DNA of 64,000 nt from Eledone cirrhosa (taxonomy: Eukaryota), in NCBI GenBank assembly GCA_964016885.1, contig OZ024754.1, positions 40,052,001 to 40,116,000 of the forward strand, written 5' to 3'. The position numbers were made by a program, and so were the translations under genes. This document shows positions 7,107 through 63,714 of this stretch, piece by piece. The notes under the pieces were generated by a model. That model saw nothing but the letters and a program-made list of their open reading frames with translations, was not told where the DNA came from and ran no database searches. Each line of letters begins with the position of its first letter. Position 1 is the stretch's first letter.

Positions 7107-7404
7107 TCCATGTTATGGAGGAAAGAAGTTGTGGTGAATCTTTGGAATAGTGCATAACAAATATTTAATGGCCCTAATAGTTGTTCCAATGTTCAAAAGT
7201 GGCCCACCAGTGGAATATGTTGCACACCTCTGCTTTAGAACATCAGATAAAATGCTTTGCAAGTATTTGTTCTCTCTCTCTCTCTCTGTATTCTGTATTC
7301 AAATCTCACAGAGATCAAAGATTTTAGCAACATAACTGATATAGGAAATGTATTATGTGTATGTTTGTGAGTGCAAATTTTAAAGAGTTACATACATACA
7401 TATA

Positions 7405-7741
7405 TCATCATCATCATCATTTTATGTCCGCTTTTCCCTGCTTGCAAGGGTGGGACGGGAACTGATTCTGGCTTGATTTCTACAGCTGGGTGCCCTTCCT
7501 AACACCAACCTCATTTACAGTGAGTGCTGGGTGCTTTTTTGCCGTGGCACCTCCACGACCACTTTGCAGTGGAATGATAGTGACCCCAGTCCTATCATCT
7601 CATTTCTACAGCTGAGTAAATTGGAGCAATGTGAAATAAAGTGTCTTGCTCAAGGAAACAACACATCACCCGGTCCGAGAATTGAACTCACAACCTTTCG
7701 ATTGCAAGGCCAATACTCTAACCACTAAGCCATGTGCCTCC
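7405..7741 (-). mobile_element. tRNA-derived SINE, family 2, with RTE-type tail
   Basis: Reverse complement of 7887-8229; (tga)n tail. Confidence 0.9.
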
Positions 7742-7886
7742 AATATATATATTTTGATTCCAGAGTTGGGCCAGATCGAACTTTAAGCTGATCAATAGAG
7801 AAATGCACATCAACAATCAATAAACGTAATGAAGGCTTAACAAATCGTCCTTGTATTATTATATACATATATATATACACATATAT

Positions 7887-8229
7887 GGAGGCACATGGCT
7901 TAGTGGTTAGAGCATTGGCCTTGCAATTGAAAGGTTGTGAGTTCAATTCTCAGACCAAGTGATGTGTTGTTTCCTTGAGCAAGACACTTTATTTCACATT
8001 GCTCCAGTTTACTCAGCTGTAGAAATGAGATGATAGGGACTGGTGTCCCTATCATTCCATTGCAAAGTGGTCGTGGAGGTGCCACGGCAAAAAAGCACCC
8101 AGCACTCACTGTAAATGAGGTTGGTGTTAGGAAGGGCATCCAGCTGTAGAAATCAAGCCAGAATCAGTTCCCGTCCCACCCTTGCAAGCAGGGAAACGTG
8201 GACGTAAAATGAAATGATGAAATGATGAT
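7887..8229 (+). mobile_element. tRNA-derived SINE, family 2, with RTE-type tail
   Basis: A box tggcttagtgg, B box gagttcaattc, central ccttgagcaagacactt, tail cccacccttgcaagcagggaa...ggacgtaaaatga. Confidence 0.9.
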
Positions 8230-8294
8230 ATATATACACATATATATACTCATGTGGCATATTATAGTTGATTGGAATCTTTTCCTTACAAAGT

Positions 8295-12090: not shown

Positions 12091-12092
<2 letters not shown>

Positions 12093-12270
12093 GTTATTCC
12101 GGGTTGAATCGGAGGTAACCACAGTAAGTAAGGTACTCAATACATAGCAGAGTATAAAAGTTTTAATGTAGATGAGATTCTACAGGACTAGAACTGTTTC
12201 ATGAGATTCCTGATGATTTCTAATGAATGAAACAGTTCTAGTCCTGTAGAATCTCATCTACATTAAAACT
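12091..12270. mobile_element. Fold-back PLE-like mini-element, family A, in (TA)n
   Basis: Inverted arms 12159-12202 and 12227-12270; (TA)n on both sides; homologues at 37596-37779 and 47192-47344. Confidence 0.8.
12201..12257 (+). ncRNA. Type I hammerhead ribozyme
   Basis: Stem I atgagattc/gaatctcat (9 bp), CTGATGA 12210-16, stem II ttc-taat-gaa, GAAA 12229-32, stem III acag/ctgt, GUA cleavage after 12248. Confidence 0.85.
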
Positions 12271-13589: not shown

Positions 13590-13654
13590 ATATATATATA
13601 CACACACACACACACACGTATACACAAACACACACATATATATATATATATATA

Positions 13655-13855
13655 TAGGAACGAGTAGGACCCCAACGGCTGAGCTCAAGCCGTTTCGACG
13701 GCTAATTCTGGACTTCTGAGTCCAGAATTAGCCGTCGAAACGGCTTGAGCTCAGCCGTCGGGGTCCTACTTGTTCCTATTACCCACTCTACTACCCTAAG
13801 TATTGAGTACTTTGGTGCGTTATGGTCCACCTGGTTCCTTACCACATTTCCTTCG

Positions 13856-13858
<3 letters not shown>
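13655..13858 (+). mobile_element. Fold-back PLE-like mini-element, family B, in (TA)n
   Basis: About 60-bp arms around a tctg loop (13715-18); 3' half of an HHR: GAAA-cggct tgagctc agccGTC-ggggtcc; 80-bp unique tail. Confidence 0.8.
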
Positions 13859-17406: not shown

Positions 17407-17641
17407 AAACAACATCACCCCACTTGCTAGAAACAGAAGCTAAGTCTCTCTCAAACCAATCTCTCTATTCTAAATAGCACATATGTAGTTCTACATACTC
17501 CTTACAAGACAGCATTGCCATTGCTGGAACACTAACATTGCTTTCAACCCATTCATTAGCATATTCTTAATGAAAGACACTGCCTAAGATCTTCATAAGG
17601 TCTTAAAATAATCAAGAATCTTGAATGATTTAGTTAACTTA

Positions 17642-18622
17642 CCCTTTAGCATTTACATTACTCTATTGTATTTTCATGGTAAAGGCATAATATCGAATCT
17701 ATGAGATTTTGATGCTCTTTATTTTGAGAACAATACCTTAACACCAGTATGAGAAGCTCAATTACAGCCAGTTTGAACAGAAAGAGGTGAGAGAGTTCTG
17801 GCCGGATACAGCCGGTTTGAACAGAAAGAGGTGAGAGAATTCTGGCCGGATACGGCCGGTTTGAACAGAAAGAGGTGAGAGAGTTCTGGCCGGATACAGC
17901 CGGTTTGAACAGAAGAGGTGAGAGAGTTCTGGCCGGATATGACCGGTTTGAACAGAAAGAGGTGAGAGAGTTCTGGCCGGTTACGGCCGGTTTGAACAGA
18001 AAGAGGTGAGAGAGTCTGGCCGGATACAGCCGGTTTGAACAGAAAGAGGTGAGAGAATTCTGGCCGGATACAGCCGGTTTGAACAGAAAGAGGTGAGAGA
18101 GTTCTGGCCGGATACAGCCGGTTTGAACAGAAAGAGGTGAGAGAGTTCTGGCCGGATACAGCCGGTTTGAACAGAAAGAGGTGAGAGAATTCTGGCCGGA
18201 TACAGCCGGTTTGAACAGAAAGAGGTGAGAGAGTTCTGGCCGGATACAGCCGTTTGAACAGAAAGAGGTGAGAGAGTTCTGGCCGGATACAGCCGGTTTG
18301 AACAGAAAGAGGTGAGAGAGTTCTGGCCGGTTACGGCCGGTTTGAACAGAAAGAGGTGAGAGAGTTCTGGCCGGATACAGCCGGTTTGAACAGAAAGAGG
18401 TGAGAGAATTCTGGCCGGATACAGCCGGTTTGAACAGAAAGAGGTGAGAGAGTTCTGGCCGGATACAGCCGGTTTTGAACAGAAAGAGGTGAGAGAGTTC
18501 TGGCCGGATACAGCCGGTTTTGAACAGAAAGAGGTGAGAGAGTTCTGGCCGGATACAGCCGGTTTGAACAGAAAGAGGTGAGAGAGTTCTGGCCGGATAT
18601 GACCGGTTTAAATGCTAAAGAG
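17642..18622. mobile_element. TTAA MITE with an internal 44-bp array (about 19 copies)
   Basis: TIRs intact; unit ccggtttgaacagaaagaggtgagagagttctggccggatacag. Confidence 0.9.
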
Positions 18623-19232
18623 TTAAGCTGATGTTTGGAATATAATTTTTCAAAGGTTCTTATGATGGAAGATTTTTAGAATAAATATAAACATTTGAAA
18701 ATACACAATTGTGCAGTGTTGAACTAGAACAGTTTCAGACAGCTTGGTGTATATAAAAAGAACACTTGATGAGGAATTAAATGTGTTGACTGCCAATTAT
18801 GGACACAAGTAAACTCAATGATGATTATGATGCTGATAATGACAGCCTTTACAAATAAAACAACTGATGAGATGATAAAAGGTCTTTAAGGTTGGGAATA
18901 TTATACAAGATATACTCATGTTCCCTCCCTAAAGCTTTCTTTGGTCTTTTGTTCCTAGCATCCACACAAGTGGGAGTGTTTGTGAGAGTGTGCGAGTGTG
19001 AGAGTGTGCGAGTGTCTGTGTGTCTGTGAGTGAGGGAGTGTGTGCGTGCGTGCGAGTGTGTGTGTGCATGTGTGCATGTGCACGTGTGCATGTGCACGTG
19101 TGCATGTGCCACGTGTGCATGTGTGTGCGTGCATGTGTATGTGTGTATGTGTTGTTCTCTCTATCTGTACACCCTTTGTTGAAGTTGTGGTGAATTAGAT
19201 GTTTACACCAAGACAAAACTTACTGGGTAACA

Positions 19233-25423: not shown

Positions 25424-25472
<49 letters not shown>

Positions 25473-25500
25473 AGATCAAAAGATGGTTAAAGGAGTTCCA

Positions 25501-25573
25501 TATATTTTATTATGCGCATTTCAAAAACAAATATCATCATGCAATAACATTTGTGTTTTCATCAGATAAAATA
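25501..25573 (-). ncRNA. Type I hammerhead ribozyme (inverted arm)
   Basis: atattttat CTGATGA ... GAAA tgcgcATA ataaaatat. Confidence 0.8.
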
Positions 25574-25690
25574 TGAGGACATGATATGAAGGTTAAAAAC
25601 ACTTGTGGATAGTGCAGTTTTAAATCAACATATGTTGATTTAAAACTGCACTATCCACAAGTGTTTTTTAGCCTTCATATCATGTTCTCC

Positions 25691-25761
25691 TGTTTTATCT
25701 GATGAAAACACAAATATTATTGCTTGATGATGTTTGTTTTTGAAATGCGCATAATAAAATA
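25691..25761 (+). ncRNA. Type I hammerhead ribozyme
   Basis: Stem I ttttat/ataaaa, CTGATGA 25699-705, long stem II, GAAA 25742-45, palindromic stem III atgcgcat, AUA cleavage after 25753. Confidence 0.8.
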
Positions 25762-25900
25762 TATGGAACTCCTTTAACCATCTTTTGATCTTATATTATG
25801 CATACTCCAGTCCCACAAACTGTAGAGTGCTTCTTATCCGATATCTGCATTGCTTTATTGTACTACAATAAAACTCACCTCCTATATATATATATATATA

Positions 25901-26092
25901 TAGGAACGAGTAGGACCCCGACGGCTGAGCTCAAGCCGTTTCGACGGCTAATTCTGGACTAATTAGCCGTCGAAACGGCTTGAGCTCAGCCGTTGGGGTC
26001 CTACTCGTTCCTATTACCCACTCTACTACCCTAAGTATTGAGTACTTTGGTGCGTTATGGTCCACCTGGTTCCTTACCACATTTCCTTCATT
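25901..26092 (+). mobile_element. Family B fold-back element
   Basis: Near-identical to 13655-13858; (TA)n flanks. Confidence 0.8.
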
Positions 26093-26527: not shown

Positions 26528-26722
26528 AACGGAAGAGTTGTGGTAAGGAACCAGATGGACCATAACGCACCAGAGTACTCAATACTTAGGGTAGTAGAGT
26601 GGGTAATAGGAAAAGTTTAACCCCGACGGTAGAGCTCAAGCCGTTTCGACGGCTATTTCTGGGTCCTGAAATAGCCGTCGAAACGGCTTGAGCTCTACCG
26701 TCGGGGTTAAACTTTTTCCAAT
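26528..26722 (-). mobile_element. Family B fold-back element (variant)
   Basis: Same architecture in the opposite orientation; (TA)n flanks. Confidence 0.8.
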
Positions 26723-27169: not shown

Positions 27170-27400
27170 AGCATGTACCCATGGGAGGTCGGGTACCCTG
27201 TATTACTGCGTGACGCCAGAAGTCACGGTCGTGTGTCATTGACTTTGAGAGGTGTAGTTGGGTAAGGTCGGCTTTTATCACCTCATCCCAAGTCATCTTG
27301 GGTCTCCCCACTCCGCGGTTTCCATCAACTTCTAGTGCTCTGCACCTTTTTATGCAGCTGTCATCCTTCATACGCATCACATGTCCATACCAGCGTAACC
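27170..27400 (-). mobile_element. RTE LINE 3' fragment
   Basis: WYGHVMRMKDDSCIKRCRALEVDGNRGVGRPKMTWDEVIKADL. Confidence 0.85.
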
Positions 27401-27439
27401 AAGCTGGTTTGGTAGTCGGCTTCGTACATAACGGTTGGT

Positions 27440-27685
27440 CAATATTTTATGGTACGTCAAAATTATTTATAAAACTGCTTATATATTGTATTTTATCTGA
27501 CGAAGGCATGCCATATTTTTAATATGGTATCCCCGAAATATGTATAATGAAATAAATATGGTTTTATAAATATAGTTTCCATTTGTTTAATATCGTATAT
27601 CTACTCCAAAACTTGTCGAGTGCTTTATATCAGTTATAAAATATTTACTTGTTGTAACCCAACAATTTTATATAAAACTTTTGCA
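27440..27685 (+). mobile_element. PLE-like remnant, family D, ending in (AT)n
   Basis: Homologous to 48837-49292. Confidence 0.75.
27489..27554 (+). ncRNA. Type I hammerhead ribozyme
   Basis: Stem I tattttat/atgaaata, CTGACGA 27497-503, stem II atgccatatt/aatatggtat, GAAA 27535-38, stem III atatgtat, AUA cleavage after 27546. Confidence 0.8.
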
Positions 27686-28901: not shown

Positions 28902-29150
28902 ATCATCATCATCATCATCATCATTTTACGTCCGCTTTTCCCTGCTTGCAAGGGTTGGACGGGTCCTATTCAGCACAGCATCTCTCCACCCGTCACGGTC
29001 CTTCGTCATCTCCTCCATGAGTTTCAGCGATCTGAGGTCAGCTCTCACCACCTCTGCCCATGTTTTTCGTGGTCTACCTCTACTGCGTCTTCCCTCCACT
29101 GGGACTTCCTGCCACTTCTTCACCCATCGGTCATCCTCCATGCGCATCAC
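28902..29150 (-). mobile_element. RTE LINE 3' end nested in the Helitron helicase
   Basis: MRMEDDRWVKKWQEVPVEGRRSRGRPRKTWAEVVRADL with a (tga)n tail. Confidence 0.9.
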
Positions 29151-29324
29151 ATCTTGGGAATAAATGCATTTTCTCCTTGCTGATTGCCTCCAAGAATAGT
29201 GACCTCTAGGAGATGGTTCATCTTCCTCGTCTGTATGAAGCAAGTGTCATTGACGAAGCAGGTCCATATTTCTTAAAAGGATGTTGGCAGTTCCAATCTT
29301 TTATATTATATAAATAGATATAAA

Positions 29325-36605: not shown

Positions 36606-37012
36606 ACCTTTAGAATTTAACCCTTTAGTATTTACATTACTCTCGTATTTTCATGGTAAAGGCTTTACCTCACATAATAACGAATGTGAGATTTTGATAT
36701 TACTAATTTTGAGAACAATACATTAACATAAGTATGAGTGGCTGGTTACAGCAGGTTTGAACAGAAAGAGGTGAGAGAATTCTGTCCAGATACGGCCGGT
36801 TTAAATGCTAAAGGGTTAAACTGGCCATATCTGGTCAGAATTCTCTCACCTCTTTCTGTTCAAACTGACCATAACTGGCCACTCATACTGATGTTAAGAT
36901 ATTGTTCTCAAAATAAATAACATCAAAATCTCGTAGATTCGATATTATGTGAGATAAAGTCTTTACCACAAAAGTACAATAGTTTATATAGAGTAATGTA
37001 AATATTAATGGG
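36606..37012. mobile_element. TTAA MITE (36621-36815) nested in opposite orientation in the end of another copy
   Basis: TTAA duplicated at 36617-20 and 36816-19. Confidence 0.85.
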
Positions 37013-37595
37013 TTAATGTAGTTGGTAGATATGAAGAGGAAATTAGAAGGAAAAAAAATAGCTTTGAAATTATCTCCTCTGCATCAGTTGTTAGCTGCCA
37101 AGACTGCGCATCCTTTAAAACCTCCACGCTTCCTGAAATTCGCCAACACTACACCCGATATCCCCCCCTCCATACACACGCACACCTGTATATCATGACT
37201 CATACACCGTTTACTTTCCTGACATTTGTACATTATTCTATGTACTATACATGCACCTTTGATGAGTTGTAGTGCACCTGAGCATTGTACACAATTATAT
37301 ATATATATTGGGTATGAAATTTGTAGAAATTTGTTTTTTGTTTCTACAAATTTCATACTTGCGACCCAATATATATATATTATGACCCTTTACGTTCTGA
37401 GTTTAAATCCCGCCGAGGTTAACTTTGCTTTTCATCCTTACGGGGTCGATAAAATAAAGTACCAGTAATACACTGGATAATTGCTGGCCTTGTGCCAAAA
37501 GTAGAAACAATTTTATATATATATATATATACAGATTTAGTTGTCGAAACAGCCAGAGCTCAGCCGTCGGGGGCCTGAATTTTTTTCATATATAT

Positions 37596-37775
37596 GAAAG
37601 CTTCTACAGGACCAGAACTGTTTCATTCGTGAGAAATCATCAGGAAGCTCCTGATGATTTCTCACGAATGAAACAGTTCTAGTCCTGTAGAAGCTTTTCT
37701 ATATTAAATATTTATACTCTGCTATGTATCGAGTACCTTACTTGCTGTGGTTACTCCCTTATTGAACCAGGGATA

Positions 37776-37779
<4 letters not shown>
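37596..37779. mobile_element. Family A fold-back element with two back-to-back hammerheads
   Basis: Minus-strand HHR 37599-37649 and plus-strand HHR 37645-37696; a family B fragment is adjacent at about 37533-37587. Confidence 0.85.
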
Positions 37780-47191: not shown

Positions 47192-47344
47192 CACGTTATT
47201 CCGGGTTGAATCGGAGGTAACCACAGTAAGTAAGGTACTCAATACATAGCAGAGTATAACAGTTTTAATATAGATGAGATTCATCTATATTAAAACTCAT
47301 CTATATTAATCTCATCTATATTAAATCTCATCTATATTAAAACT
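47192..47344 (-). mobile_element. Family A element truncated at the HHR cleavage site, with 4 short inverted repeats
   Basis: Matches 12091-12180, then (tcatctatattaa) x4; (TA)n flanks. Confidence 0.85.
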
Positions 47345-47561: not shown

Positions 47562-47587
47562 TCCATAAAGTCTATATACTGTATATA

Positions 47588-47779
47588 TAGGAAAAGAGTC
47601 AGGACCCCGACGGCAGAGCTCAAGCCGACGGCTATTTCTGGACTGAAATAGCCGTCGAAACGGCTTGAGCTCTGCCGTCGGGGTCCTGTCTATTTTCCTA
47701 TTACCCACTCTACTATTCAAAGTATCGAGTACTCTGGTGCGGTATGGTCCAGCTGGTTCCTTACCACACTTCCTTCGTT
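47588..47779 (+). mobile_element. Family B fold-back element
   Basis: Homology to other family B copies; TA flanks. Confidence 0.8.
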
Positions 47780-48429: not shown

Positions 48430-48477
<48 letters not shown>

Positions 48478-48520
48478 TAATTCAAAATATTAACAAAATA
48501 GATATTCTTGTGATCAAGTA

Positions 48521-48587
48521 TATTTTATTATACATATTTCAGAGGTACTGAGTTAACTTCAACAGTACGTCCTCATCAGATAAAATA
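48521..48587 (-). ncRNA. Type I hammerhead ribozyme in a (TA)n-flanked insert (48478-48810, family F)
   Basis: tattttat CTGATGA ggac gtactg...cagtac ctct GAAA tatgtATA ataaaata; stem I is a perfect 8 bp. Confidence 0.85.
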
Positions 48588-48836
48588 AGATGATGCATGA
48601 CATACCCTGACATAGTAGATGGTTAAGATTCAGTCATGGTAGTGAGTAAATATATGACAAAACTCAATATTTATACCCTAATATTGAGAACATGAGAAAA
48701 ATATATAATACATACAATAGAGAGGGTGCGTGTAATACAGCTTAAAAAATACATGGCATCAATATAACCTCATTCTTTGATGTATTCATTGAACCTTGCT
48801 TAACTTTTAAATATATATATATATATATATATATAT

Positions 48837-49292
48837 GGAAAGTTATATTTAAATTGTTAGGTTACAACTAGTAAATATTTATAACTGATATAAAAGCACT
48901 CGACAAGTATTTGGAGTATATTTACGATATTAAATAAATGGAAACTATATTTATAAAACCATATTTATTTCATTATATATATTTCAGGGATATCATATTA
49001 ACAATATGCTATGCCTTCCTCAGACAAAATACAATATAGACAGTTTTATAGATAAATAGATTTGACATACCGTACAACATCGACTTGTATTTGAAAAGTT
49101 GAATTGGCCAATTCAACTTTTCAAATACAAGTCGATGTTGTACGGTATGTCAAATCTATTTATCTATAAAACTGTCTATATTGTATTTTGTCTGAAGAAG
49201 GCATAACATATTGTTAATATGATATCCCTGAAATATATATAATGAAATAAATATGGTTTTATAAATATAGTTTCCATTTATTTAATATCGTA
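48837..49292. mobile_element. Family D fold-back element with two HHRs (minus 48966-49031, plus 49184-49249)
   Basis: About 185-bp arms, no spacer (centre 49107/8); cores CTGAGGA and CTGAAGA; (TA)n flanks. Confidence 0.85.
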
Positions 49293-49310
49293 TATATATA
49301 TATATATATA

Positions 49311-49533
49311 GAAAAAGAGATGAAATCGAAAATGCAACTGGAGTCTTATTTTAAAAAAATATATATATATTTATTTGGTTCCTTTACCATAAGGAACCAA
49401 ATAAATATATATATATTTTTTATTTAAATAAGACTCCAGTTGCATTTTCGATTTCATCTCTTTTTCTTTATACTTTCACTCGTGTAGGACACCTCGGTTA
49501 TTTTTCAATTTGTAAAAAAACCCTCACTTTCTA
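49311..49533 (+). mobile_element. Fold-back element, family E, in (TA)n
   Basis: About 75-bp arms around taccat (49385-90) plus a unique tail; no HHR core retained. Confidence 0.7.
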
Positions 49534-51700: not shown

Positions 51701-53672
51701 CTGTCATACGTGGATTGGTTTTCATGATAAAATAGCAGCCTATCGGTTGTATTACAGATTAGCATTATAACTGGGGGGAATCACGGCCCCTCTCTTATTT
51801 CACCTTTGGCCCGCTGTGCCTCTTCCCTGTGATGTAATGGTCTTTTGGGGTCCTCCAGTTTAAGACCCATGCTCTAGATTCCGTCCCATATCTCCCCTAG
51901 TCCTCACTAATTATGTTTTTGCTGAATGATCTGACTGGCATATCTGAGTTCAAATCCCGCCAAGGTTAAGTTTGCCTTTCATCCATACGGGGTCGATAAA
52001 ATAAAGTACCAGTAATGTACTGGGGATAATTGCTGGTCTGTGCCAAAAGTAGAAACAATTATTAATACAGGGAAACAAAAGCAAACTTCAAAAGTTTAAT
52101 ACTGCTGCTGATGTTGCTGCTGCAAATGCCCTAATTTTATGAAAAAATTAGTCTGAAAAAATGTTCTGCCGCGGGTCATAGAAAAGTAGTTTACGGGTCG
52201 TAAGTTTGATACCCCCCACACACACCCGATAAGCTATCAAATTTCATTATTAGATATTGAATACTGCTAATAAATACTTAGTTTATATATATCCTGTTGG
52301 TCGTCAACTAAGTCAAATAGGCCATATACACACTTAAACTAAATTTTATTAAGAACAAGCCGGATAAAATTACCTCCATTCTTGTGGGGATTGTTCTAAA
52401 ACCTTATTTATTCCAATATAAAAACTACCAGAGAGAGGGGGGTAGGGGAGAGAGGGGGTAGGGGAGAGAGGGAGGGAGAGGCAGGGAGGGAGTGAGGGAG
52501 GGAGAGGGAGAGAGAGGGAGGGAGAGAGAGAGAGGGAGGGAGGGGTAGAGAGCGGAAGGCAGAGTGAGGGGAAGGGCACAATTTAAAGCTAATCTTGAAA
52601 AACTACCACCATTGGAGGTGCGATATATTGTCAACTATAAAGTCTTCCAAGAGAGAAACATTTAACTCCTTGTTGTTCACCTTTTCTTTTTCTTCTCTCT
52701 CCCTGTCCATCTCTCTCTCTGTCTCTTCTCTGTCTGTCTCTTCTCTGTCTGTCTGTCTGTCTGTCTCTTCTCTGTCTGTCCTCTCTCTCTCTCCTGTCTG
52801 TCTGTCTCTCTTCTCTGTCTGTCTGTCTCTTCTCTGTCTGTCTGTCTGTCTGTCTCTTTGTCTCTCTTCTCTGTCTGTCTGTCTCTTCTCTGTCTGTCTG
52901 TCTGTCTGTCTCTTTGTCTCTCTCTCTCTCTCTGTCTCTCTCTCTCTCTGTCTGTCTCTCTGTCTCTCTGCCTCCCTCCGTCTCTCCCTCCCTCCGTCTC
53001 TCTCTCCCTCCGTCTCTTAATATTGGTTTCTGATTTAGGCACAAGGTCAGCAATTTGGGGGAAGGGGAAAGTCGATTAAATCGATCCAGTGCGTTACTAG
53101 TACTTTATTTTATCAACCCCGTAAGGATGAAAAGCAAAGTTAACCTCAGCAGGATTTGAACTCAGACCATAAAAGGCCGGAACTCTTTGCTGCAAAGCAT
53201 GGCGTCCGACCCTCTACCGATACTGCCAATCCACCGCCCCATTATGTGAGATAATTATGTGAAATAAAATGTTTACCGTGAAAATACAATAGTAAATATA
53301 GAGTCATGTAAATGCTAAAGGGTTAAACATATGAGCATGTTTTATTTACATACAGTTGAAAAAGATGAACAGCTTGGCCATAGTTTCGACCTTTGTAGAC
53401 GACTTCATCAGAAAGTGTCTACCTCCTTTACAATCCACAAAGAAGTGTATAGCCAATGGATTTACGAATCTATCAGATGTGGTACAACTAGAGATCTGGA
53501 CCTGCTCATTTGTGTAATAATCCTAATCCTTGCGGTGATAGTTAATACAATGTTATACTAGACCACCCGTTACCCGTTGTGTCACGTTGACTTATAAAAT
53601 AAAAAATAATTTTGAAATAATTGAAATATACACAGACATGTATTTAATGTAAAATGAAATTGGAAGGCCCAA

Positions 53673-61194: not shown

Positions 61195-61370
61195 TAGGTA
61201 ATTCCGAAGGAAACGCAAAGGAAAAAAGAGTGCTCTATGTATAGAACAGAGCTATTTAATTAGAAAGTGAACAACACAAAATATAACTACTCCAGACCTA
61301 TATTAATATTGTCTGGGATCCAGAAACCTTTGGTAATGGAGTAGTTATATTTTGTGTTGTTCACTTTCTA
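61195..61370 (-). mobile_element. Short fold-back element, family H
   Basis: 34-bp arms 61261-61294 and 61337-61370, with a unique tail carrying the shared bulged hairpin. Confidence 0.6.
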
Positions 61371-62600: not shown

Positions 62601-63109
62601 AAGATGAAAAGCAAAATCAATCAATTTTATTTTAACAAGCTTTTCAGTTCATACATTTCTGAAACCCATTCAAGCTATGAAATGTAAAAGACAAGAAAAC
62701 AACAGATGAAAAAAAACAGGTTGTTTACCACTCGTTAACAAAACCAAGGTGTTTACCACTCCCTAACAAAACCAACAATGGAATGAACCTTACATTAGAA
62801 TCTTATTGTTAACTCATGTTGTTGAATTATCAAAACAAATATCAAAAAGCTCACCTAATCAATGTGATACCAAATACTTCTTCATACAAAAAATGAAAAC
62901 AAATAATCGATGTGAAATTATTTTTACTTAATTTTAGTTTACGGTGAATTTCTTTTTCATTTAGGATCCTATAAATGGACAAAACTGGACAAAAAATACC
63001 TGGCAACAATCAACAGATTTCAAAATTCCTTATTTTTACAAACAGAATTGACATGTGCAGCCAGGTTGGAAGTGATATCACGTTGGCAGGTGTAAAATCA
63101 GTCAGCTGG

Positions 63110-63500
63110 AATTTGCAGACGAGATGGTGTGTGTTACTTAACTCAACGGAAGGTGATCTTGATAGGTCTGATGTTGCATTGCTGGAACGAAAATGAGTGC
63201 TGCGAAAACCGAGACATTTGTTCTCTAAAAGAAGTCTGCACTCTACATGTGAATGGAGTTTGACTCAAGTAGATGGAGAGGTTCAAATATCTCGAGGCGG
63301 TGTTCACAAATGATGGAAAGCAGGAGGCCGAATTAAGTGCAAGAATTGCAGGAACTGGTGCAGTAATGGGTCAACTTCAACATTCAGTAATCAGAAGGGA
63401 GGTAGGCATAAAAGCCAAACTCACCATCTTCAGTTCGGTATTCGAACCAACCCTTACCTATGGTCATGAATCTTGGGTAACAAGCAAAAGATTACAACAA
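63110..63500 (+). mobile_element. RTE LINE RT fragment
   Basis: ERFKYLEAVFTNDGKQEAELSARI...KAKLTIFSSVFEPTLTYGHESWVT. Confidence 0.85.
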
Positions 63501-63714
63501 ATACACACTCATATACAAAATGTGACGTCGTGTTATAAAATATCCGTTTTCTTATAATTGTCTATAGTAGAATATTTTAGTTAAAATGTTATATTGTTTT
63601 AATCCAAATGTAAATTATATGTCGTCAATCCCGGGGTCTAATACTATTACCTTCTAAAATTTGATCAAGCCATTTGGGAATGCATAAGGAAGAGAGAGAG
63701 AGGGGGGGTGCGTG

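Follow-up and report, generated by a model that had tools for sequence, protein, structure and literature searches.

A conserved bulged hairpin near the ends of truncated Penelope-like element inserts in Eledone cirrhosa, a candidate signal for internal starts of reverse transcription

Results

Fold-backs of one plan in a microsatellite-rich region

The window, a 64,000-nucleotide stretch of Eledone cirrhosa DNA (assembly GCA_964016885.1, contig OZ024754.1, positions 40,052,001 to 40,116,000, forward strand), is rich in microsatellites, and comparison of the window with itself revealed many short fold-backs. Ten of them, from five unrelated families (three copies of A, four of B, and one each of C, D, and H), follow a common plan: a short inverted arm, a centre, a long arm, and a tail on one side only, mostly set between (TA)n runs (Table 1). 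The centres vary between copies of A and of B; they are perfect and spacer-less in C and D1, with 3- to 4-nt loops in A2, A3, and B1. In A1, B2, and H, the short arm extends further 5' than the long arm.

Table 1. Positions of the fold-back families and their parts, counted from the first base of the window.
Element	Feature	Positions	Strand
C	Short inverted arm lacking a tail; (TA)n adjoins it on the left	25465-25631	-
C	Long arm, part common to the short arm (last shared base 25799)	25632-25799	+
C	Predicted type I hammerhead-like motif (CTGATGA at 25699, GAAA, short palindromic stem III)	25692-25761	+
C	Bulged hairpin 1	25804-25830	+
C	Tail, then (TA)n; by layout homology with L058, putative start of the next unit's 5' UTR	25800-25882	+
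B1	Fold-back 13654-13779, hairpin 13785-13810, tail	13654-13856	+
B2	Fold-back 25900-26014, hairpin 26020-26045, tail to 26091	25900-26091	+
B3	Hairpin 26575-26600; short arm stops about 10 nt before the hairpin	26529-26722	-
B4	Hairpin 47707-47732	47587-47778	+
B orphan	Tail-less arm ending at the same spot in TA	37532-37590	+
A1	Hairpin 12133-12153; short arm retains hammerhead core (12210, plus)	12092-12270	-
A2	Hammerhead core 37651, hairpin 37716-37736	37590-37778	+
A3	Hairpin 47235-47255; short arm tandemly repeated	47192-47344	-
D1	Fold-back 48917-49298 region, hammerhead cores in both arms, hairpin 48896-48917	48837-49298	-
D2	Single arm, hammerhead core (27497), hairpin 27603-27623, tail	27438-27685	+
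H	Fold-back 61261-61370, hairpin 61230-61252, tail into (CA)n	61195-61370	-
E	Candidate family member only: fold-back with one-sided extension, no canonical hairpin	49305-49530	+

Several neighboring features deserve mention in their own right. Different families lie back to back in one TA run at three places (C/B2 at 25883-25901, the B orphan/A2 at 37532-37600, and D1/E at 49298-49305), which is consistent with repeated targeting of the same microsatellite. After the A3 short arm (47261-47344), a 17- to 20-nt unit of the arm end recurs three or four times in tandem, a pattern that would suit repeated re-priming or slippage. Another hammerhead-bearing arm at 48470-48600 (minus strand, core at 48579) ends in (TA)n and lacks a tail or partner arm; it is probably the tail-less end of another family. 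A lone hammerhead-like core at 53411 (53340-53420, minus strand) has neither fold-back nor hairpin match. Finally, an 840-bp inverted repeat of SINE-like pieces with a unique centre spans 7397-8236, and a related palindrome lies at 36617-37016; its family is a 44-nt tandem array at approximately 17640-18630.

Short arms end just before a bulged hairpin

The tail of every one of these fold-backs carries a bulged hairpin, a motif of 21 to 27 nt. Measured from the last base common to both arms to the start of the hairpin, the short arm ends 4 to 11 nt before the hairpin in all ten (5, 11, and 5 nt in A; 5, 5, 10, and 5 nt in B; 4 nt in C, 5 nt in D, and 8 nt in H), or up to 16 nt before it if bases common to the TA run are counted. 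The first-pass annotation, made from the sequence alone, had placed short-arm ends just before the motif in families A, B, C, D, E, and H, and this stands for all but E, which offers no motif as a reference point and was left out of the count; also left out, as single arms, were D2 and the orphan B arm. The example arm ends given there proved exact (C at 25799, hairpin at 25804, 4 nt; B1 at 13779, hairpin at 13785, 5 nt; D1 at 48923, hairpin at 48917 on the minus strand, 5 nt), and it gave the long arm a 60- to 90-nt tail; from arm end to tail end we measured 66 to 86 nt. Hairpin plus tail comes to 58-81 nt in the window and approximately 50-60 nt in the metagenome loci described below. Family E (49305-49530, in (TA)n) has neither a canonical hairpin nor a hammerhead core in the motif scan, and may represent a divergent family that uses another signal.

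With one copy per family and a 15-nt zone that was set after the data had been seen, the chance of arm ends so placed is approximately 9e-6 for uniformly distributed ends and 2.4e-4 for ends restricted to TA dinucleotides. The arm end also tracks the hairpin (2-11 nt, sd 2.5) more closely than it tracks the ribozyme cut site (14-47 nt, sd 12); two of the automatic ribozyme calls behind this comparison are wrong by eye, an error that leaves the range as wide. These measurements cover the window, reads aligned to C and B2, and the metagenome loci.

A scan with the pattern NCTC-stem-loop-stem-TN-GAGN-RC, derived from the window copies themselves, gave 12 matches in the window and none in 30 shuffles. 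Eleven fall in the families (the ten fold-backs and single-arm D2). The twelfth, at 63259 on the minus strand, sits inside a LINE-like reading frame and was set aside as chance. LINE-like reading-frame fragments span 62975-63554, which we take to be RTE-type, and more occur at 27171-27446 and 28929-29246 (minus strand).

Raw reads carrying the same species label bear on two of the arm ends. At 25883, the B short-arm end, loose TA letters occur in 3040 reads of run X22, and a further 751 represent a subfamily ending within 2 nt of that position, compared with a depth of 5549 at 25907. Because X22 consists of RAD reads, with duplicates likely, these are not independent loci, and the loose ends listed are 24 of 662; the reads support a fixed B short-arm end. 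For family C, summed contig depth falls from 2.08 to 0.66 million across 25761-25808 in run X1, and no drop occurs in X4. Short arms joined directly to tail are also seen in reads, and six of the seven substitutions between the two arms of C are variants common to other copies in the reads.

The hairpin is conserved in pairing and thermodynamically weak

The letters CTC, GAG, and RC are fixed in the motif. Across 12 families, the outer pair is A-T in four and G-C in eight, and three inner pairs vary yet stay paired (shuffle p of 0.0016 or less); this covariation leans toward pairing because instances were picked as pairing, which the published consensi were not. On the sense strand, the pairs include three G-U and no A-C, among few cases. 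Minimum-energy folding recovers a complete or partial hairpin in C, B1, D1, and H and none in A2, and no region has a z score below -1.83, a weakness that would fit a protein-bound element. RNAalifold predicted no pairs on a MAFFT alignment of ten hairpins because differing loop lengths misaligned the 5' half. In a model that combined B with two metagenome hairpins, H, C, D2, A1, A3, and D1 ranked next (E 0.05-0.9), with A2 among the background; pair counts on the model-fitted alignment include weak background matches and were not relied on.

The inserts have the layout of truncated Penelope-like elements

Judged by their sequence organization, the inserts are truncated ends of Penelope-like elements (PLEs). 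The first-pass attribution to PLEs is borne out in that all ten fold-backs show the layout of a PLE insertion unit, an inverted 5'-truncated copy adjoining the pLTR with a tail on one side, and in that their centres are variable. Predicted type I hammerhead cores are complete in A, C, and D, upstream of the arm end, and B and H carry only a 3' half; an Rfam search gave only hairpin-like microRNA matches below cut-offs and no hammerhead family. By tblastn, the window has no ORF combining reverse transcriptase (RT) and GIY-YIG endonuclease; such an ORF linked to the repeat was seen only at L058, a metagenome locus that shares the hairpin.

The clade is most likely Hydra, as far as sequence traits can tell. 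Families A, B, C, and D are flanked by TA runs, and (TA)n insertion is a Hydra-clade trait; H is not so flanked, its short arm having no (TA)n at its end and its tail ending in (CA)n. Outside the window, at the hairpin-sharing locus L058, the protein carries Hydra-type RT and endonuclease motifs, with RWR in place of RWK. The inserts resemble the Hydra-clade PLEs with a C-terminal endonuclease in the relevant parts of Craig et al. (PMC8557442), which likewise insert into (TA)n and have a canonical hammerhead near the 3' end, an inverted truncated copy, and a one-sided tail. The tail is 30-40 bp there as against 66-86 nt here, where it holds the conserved hairpin, and a term search of the main text of that paper finds neither "hairpin" nor "stem-loop". 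No window family matches a deposited consensus among those compared from the same study.

Three other assignments were rejected. Naiad-clade elements have an N-terminal endonuclease and no canonical hammerhead, whereas A, C, and D carry full hammerhead cores. A MITE or other DNA-transposon derivative should have constant internal sequence between fixed terminal inverted repeats, whereas here a tail is present at one end and centres vary among the copies of A and among those of B. Metazoan non-LTR retrozymes (PMC7229834; bioRxiv 10.64898/2026.07.22.740005) are, in the portions of those sources that bear on structure, similarly non-coding, with a type I hammerhead and links to PLE ends, but they form head-to-tail tandems of hammerhead units, whereas the copies here are head-to-head stubs, each with a different centre, or single.

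The hairpin recurs in published consensi and in a full-length element

Related elements from other marine animals conserve the same hairpin. Of the six new Hydra-clade consensi that Craig et al. 2021 (PMC8557442) give in their supplement, all of which we inspected, three have the full hairpin. Hydra-2_Amil and Hydra-2_Ajap have it after the ribozyme, and Hydra-1_Ajap, whose 3' end is tail-less after the ribozyme, has it at nt 3 with a second near nt 65. Hydra-1_Crog carries a degenerate hairpin in its tail and another near the element start; in Hydra-1_Amil and Hydra-1_Obim the hairpin is absent or unclear. Six 8-mers of the hairpin 3' half gave 28 matches in that supplement, in a search blind to matches spanning line ends, and by eye the whole hairpin is present in four Hydra matches only.

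We also scanned metagenome sequence, asking only for a ribozyme core and the hairpin 3' half, and obtained 112 loci from one of 64 parts. Eight have the whole hairpin downstream of the core, and four of these hairpin loci hold a second copy of the repeat, which ends 2, 5, and 6 nt before the hairpin in L058, L096, and L078, respectively (the latter two being one family). In L004, the exception, the short arm falls 32 nt short of the hairpin or, after a deletion, enters it by 4 nt. As a control, copy ends at ribozyme loci lacking the whole hairpin are scattered from -73 to +127 nt around the 3' half, and a scan of viral sequence for the pattern gave a background of four matches with outer plus inner pairing out of 125. 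Separately, L002, L007, L010, L016, and similar loci form an abundant group of hammerhead elements in which TTGAGTGC is conserved at a comparable distance and a full 5' stem is lacking; their inverted copies often stop 30-35 nt after TTGAGTGC, and they may belong to another PLE clade whose signal is related or different.

L058 is full-length, with direct repeats at 1-140 and 2470-2609 (97.9% identical). Its layout runs from the hammerhead-motif repeat through an AT-rich spot to hairpin 1 at 143, approximately 45 nt of spacer, hairpin 2 at 213, and an ORF with ATG at 247. The 704-aa ORF has RWR, DKT, YRDD, CxCX5C, and YIG motifs, listed in part for Hydra in the sections of Craig et al. (PMC8557442) that treat them; the protein matched no Pfam family, and no relatives were found in viral and prokaryote collections. 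The downstream repeat ends within a (TTTA)n tract, 2 nt short of where the hairpin would follow. Since the hairpin opens the 5' UTR of this element, the layout implies that a tail represents the first stretch of the 5' UTR of the next unit, and that a short-arm end is the ordinary 3' end of a unit.

A second hairpin lies where tails probably end

In full elements, a second hairpin lies 62-70 nt beyond hairpin 1; L037 has one clear hairpin only. Because gene callers extend Hydra-type ORFs into the 5' UTR, hairpin 2 also shows as LST or xEH peptides in predicted proteins. Among 120 homologs of the L058 protein, 92 contain the anchor motif, and 15 of those have an N-terminal extension of at least 14 aa. 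A read-through of the hairpin 3' half (LST, SST, MST, or xEH), a peptide footprint rather than DNA, occurs in 14 of the 15, compared with a shuffle mean of 1.4 (maximum 6 in 5000) and eight of 614 windows of the protein body. Four extended homologs also show the 5' half as AP, and two carry the footprint twice, 21 aa (63 nt) apart. Several extended ORFs (L058 213-246; P0001-P0120) start at the TTG of hairpin 2.

Aligned with the UTR of L058, the L096 and L004 tails stop 3-9 nt short of hairpin 2, a fit equalled by 2 and 5 of 200 shuffles, respectively; the L066, L082, and L076 tails align no better than shuffles (77, 138, and 29 of 200). From these alignments, tail ends likely fall just before hairpin 2. 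We infer that hairpin 2, known outside the window families only, sets the tail ends as hairpin 1 sets the short ends.

Discussion

On balance, we think that the inserts are 5'-truncated, head-to-head PLE ends, likely of Hydra elements, and that the hairpin is probably an RNA signal bound by the RT, which would start a few bases upstream. The start-positioning role would explain an arm end fixed relative to the hairpin (sd 2.5), and to that extent the proposal of the first-pass annotation that the hairpin positions internal initiation holds up, with the short arm inferred to be independently primed at an internal site. The companion proposal that the other end is primed near the RNA 3' end does not: the tail corresponds to the next unit's 5' UTR, the RNA continues into the ORF in L058, and a second hairpin lies where tails end. 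Both insert ends are thus likely internal starts.

The simplest fit, which we hold with modest confidence, is twin priming at two internal sites positioned by hairpins. A tandem, uncleaved, or circular transcript would carry the unit junction internally, and the endonuclease would nick both strands of a (TA)n target. One target 3' end would prime before hairpin 1, giving the tail-less arm and also the 3' end of full-length copies, and the other would prime before hairpin 2, giving the tail-bearing arm, which copies hairpin 1. Both cDNAs would stop early and join head to head, often via microhomology. That the template was uncleaved or circular is suggested by the arms, which include the ribozyme core. 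Pairing of the start site with (TA)n, also part of the original proposal, finds weak support: 0-5 nt are shared, only marginally above background, with at least two bases shared in three of the four TA-inserted families against a background of 0.235 per site. A match of 2-3 bases to the target may help and would not set the position; the lizard element PAc, in the portion of Frangieh et al. 2024 (PMC11167929) that describes its start site, starts at a site not homologous to the target.

PAc, a Poseidon element of Anolis, offers the closest parallel. In the parts of that study (PMC11167929) relevant here, the tail lies between two internal start sites, extension occurs on both target strands, a dimer is predicted, and uncleaved RNA is the main template. 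On the twin-priming reading, the inserts share with PAc two internal starts around a tail, extension of both strands, and AT-rich targets. The PAc sites lie in the ORF, at an AC-rich stem-loop, whereas those here are non-coding, each likely just 5' of a hairpin common to distant hosts.

An alternative that we consider unlikely is that the GIY-YIG endonuclease recognizes the motif in DNA form and cuts the AT-rich spot just upstream while insertion intermediates are resolved, so that the ends are cut sites rather than start sites. The ends do fall at AT-rich spots and the motif keeps CTC, GAG, and RC; in addition, the passages of Craig et al. on the tail (PMC8557442) ascribe it most likely to endonuclease-mediated resolution, and the Drosophila Penelope tail, as cited in PMC11167929, is needed for endonuclease recognition. 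However, the inner stem varies with pairing kept, and its three G-U and zero A-C pairs, few as they are, fit a single-stranded sense molecule. Moreover, PAc genomic ends coincide with measured RT starts in the data given in PMC11167929.

It is more doubtful still that the hairpins mark RNA ends, as processing, termination, or promoter-proximal signals at the start of the 5' UTR, with the RT starting at RNA 3' ends just before them. The hairpin does lie at the unit boundary, near the start codon, and in the results drawn from PMC11167929, RNA-seq read ends of PAc coincide with its start sites; those same results have PAc initiating internally whatever 3' sequence is added. An RNA that ends before hairpin 1 cannot give a tail-bearing arm, so two RNA species would be required.

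Slightly less probable again is a snap-back origin of the short arm, copied from the tail-bearing cDNA, with second-strand synthesis stalling at the hairpin, as at a stop rather than a start, and joining the target there: the spacer-less centres of C and D1 and the 3- to 4-nt loops of A2, A3, and B1 would suit it, as would the self-priming from palindromic junctions proposed in the pertinent part of Arkhipova et al. 2013 (PMC3846280), but short arms reach beyond the long arm on the 5' side, short arms join tails directly in reads, family variants separate the arms of C, and the direct-repeat element L058 ends at the same spot. The Adineta vaga Penelope units of that paper otherwise resemble ours in their inverted pLTR, optional tail, palindromic junction, and microhomology joints; they are explained by self-priming on an antisense template, and the sections concerned name no hairpin.

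Independent priming of the short arm is favoured, given its longer 5' reach in A1, B2, and H, the arm-to-tail joints in reads, and the family variants in the arms of C. Amplification of entire palindromes or subsequent deletions could produce similar signs, and such deletions can also leave asymmetric centres.

The inverted-arm-plus-tail layout and internal initiation are already published, as the portions of the PLE literature cited here make clear. For the paired hairpin, we found no description in the literature searched, and figures, Repbase entries, and subscription papers could hold one; it is likely an undescribed cis-signal in a known class of elements. As a DNA marker, it identifies Hydra-clade stubs that lack their ORF.

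More tentatively, and as a possibility that we would stop short of calling probable, the clade-wide pair of Hydra hairpins, approximately 60-75 nt apart, may load a dimeric RT-endonuclease at two sites, each of which fixes a start a few bases upstream, in a programmed twin priming that would explain both the tail and the inverted repeat of PLEs. The choice of internal start site and the formation of inverted repeat plus tail are stated as open in the relevant passages of both key papers on PLEs, and a conserved motif, present twice at a fixed distance from insertion ends, makes the start-site question directly testable. Should the hairpin serve only for endonuclease recognition or as a signal in the 5' UTR, it would still be an undescribed conserved feature, though a less striking one; if the loading-site reading is true, the closest relatives of telomerase would possess an RNA element that positions the template.
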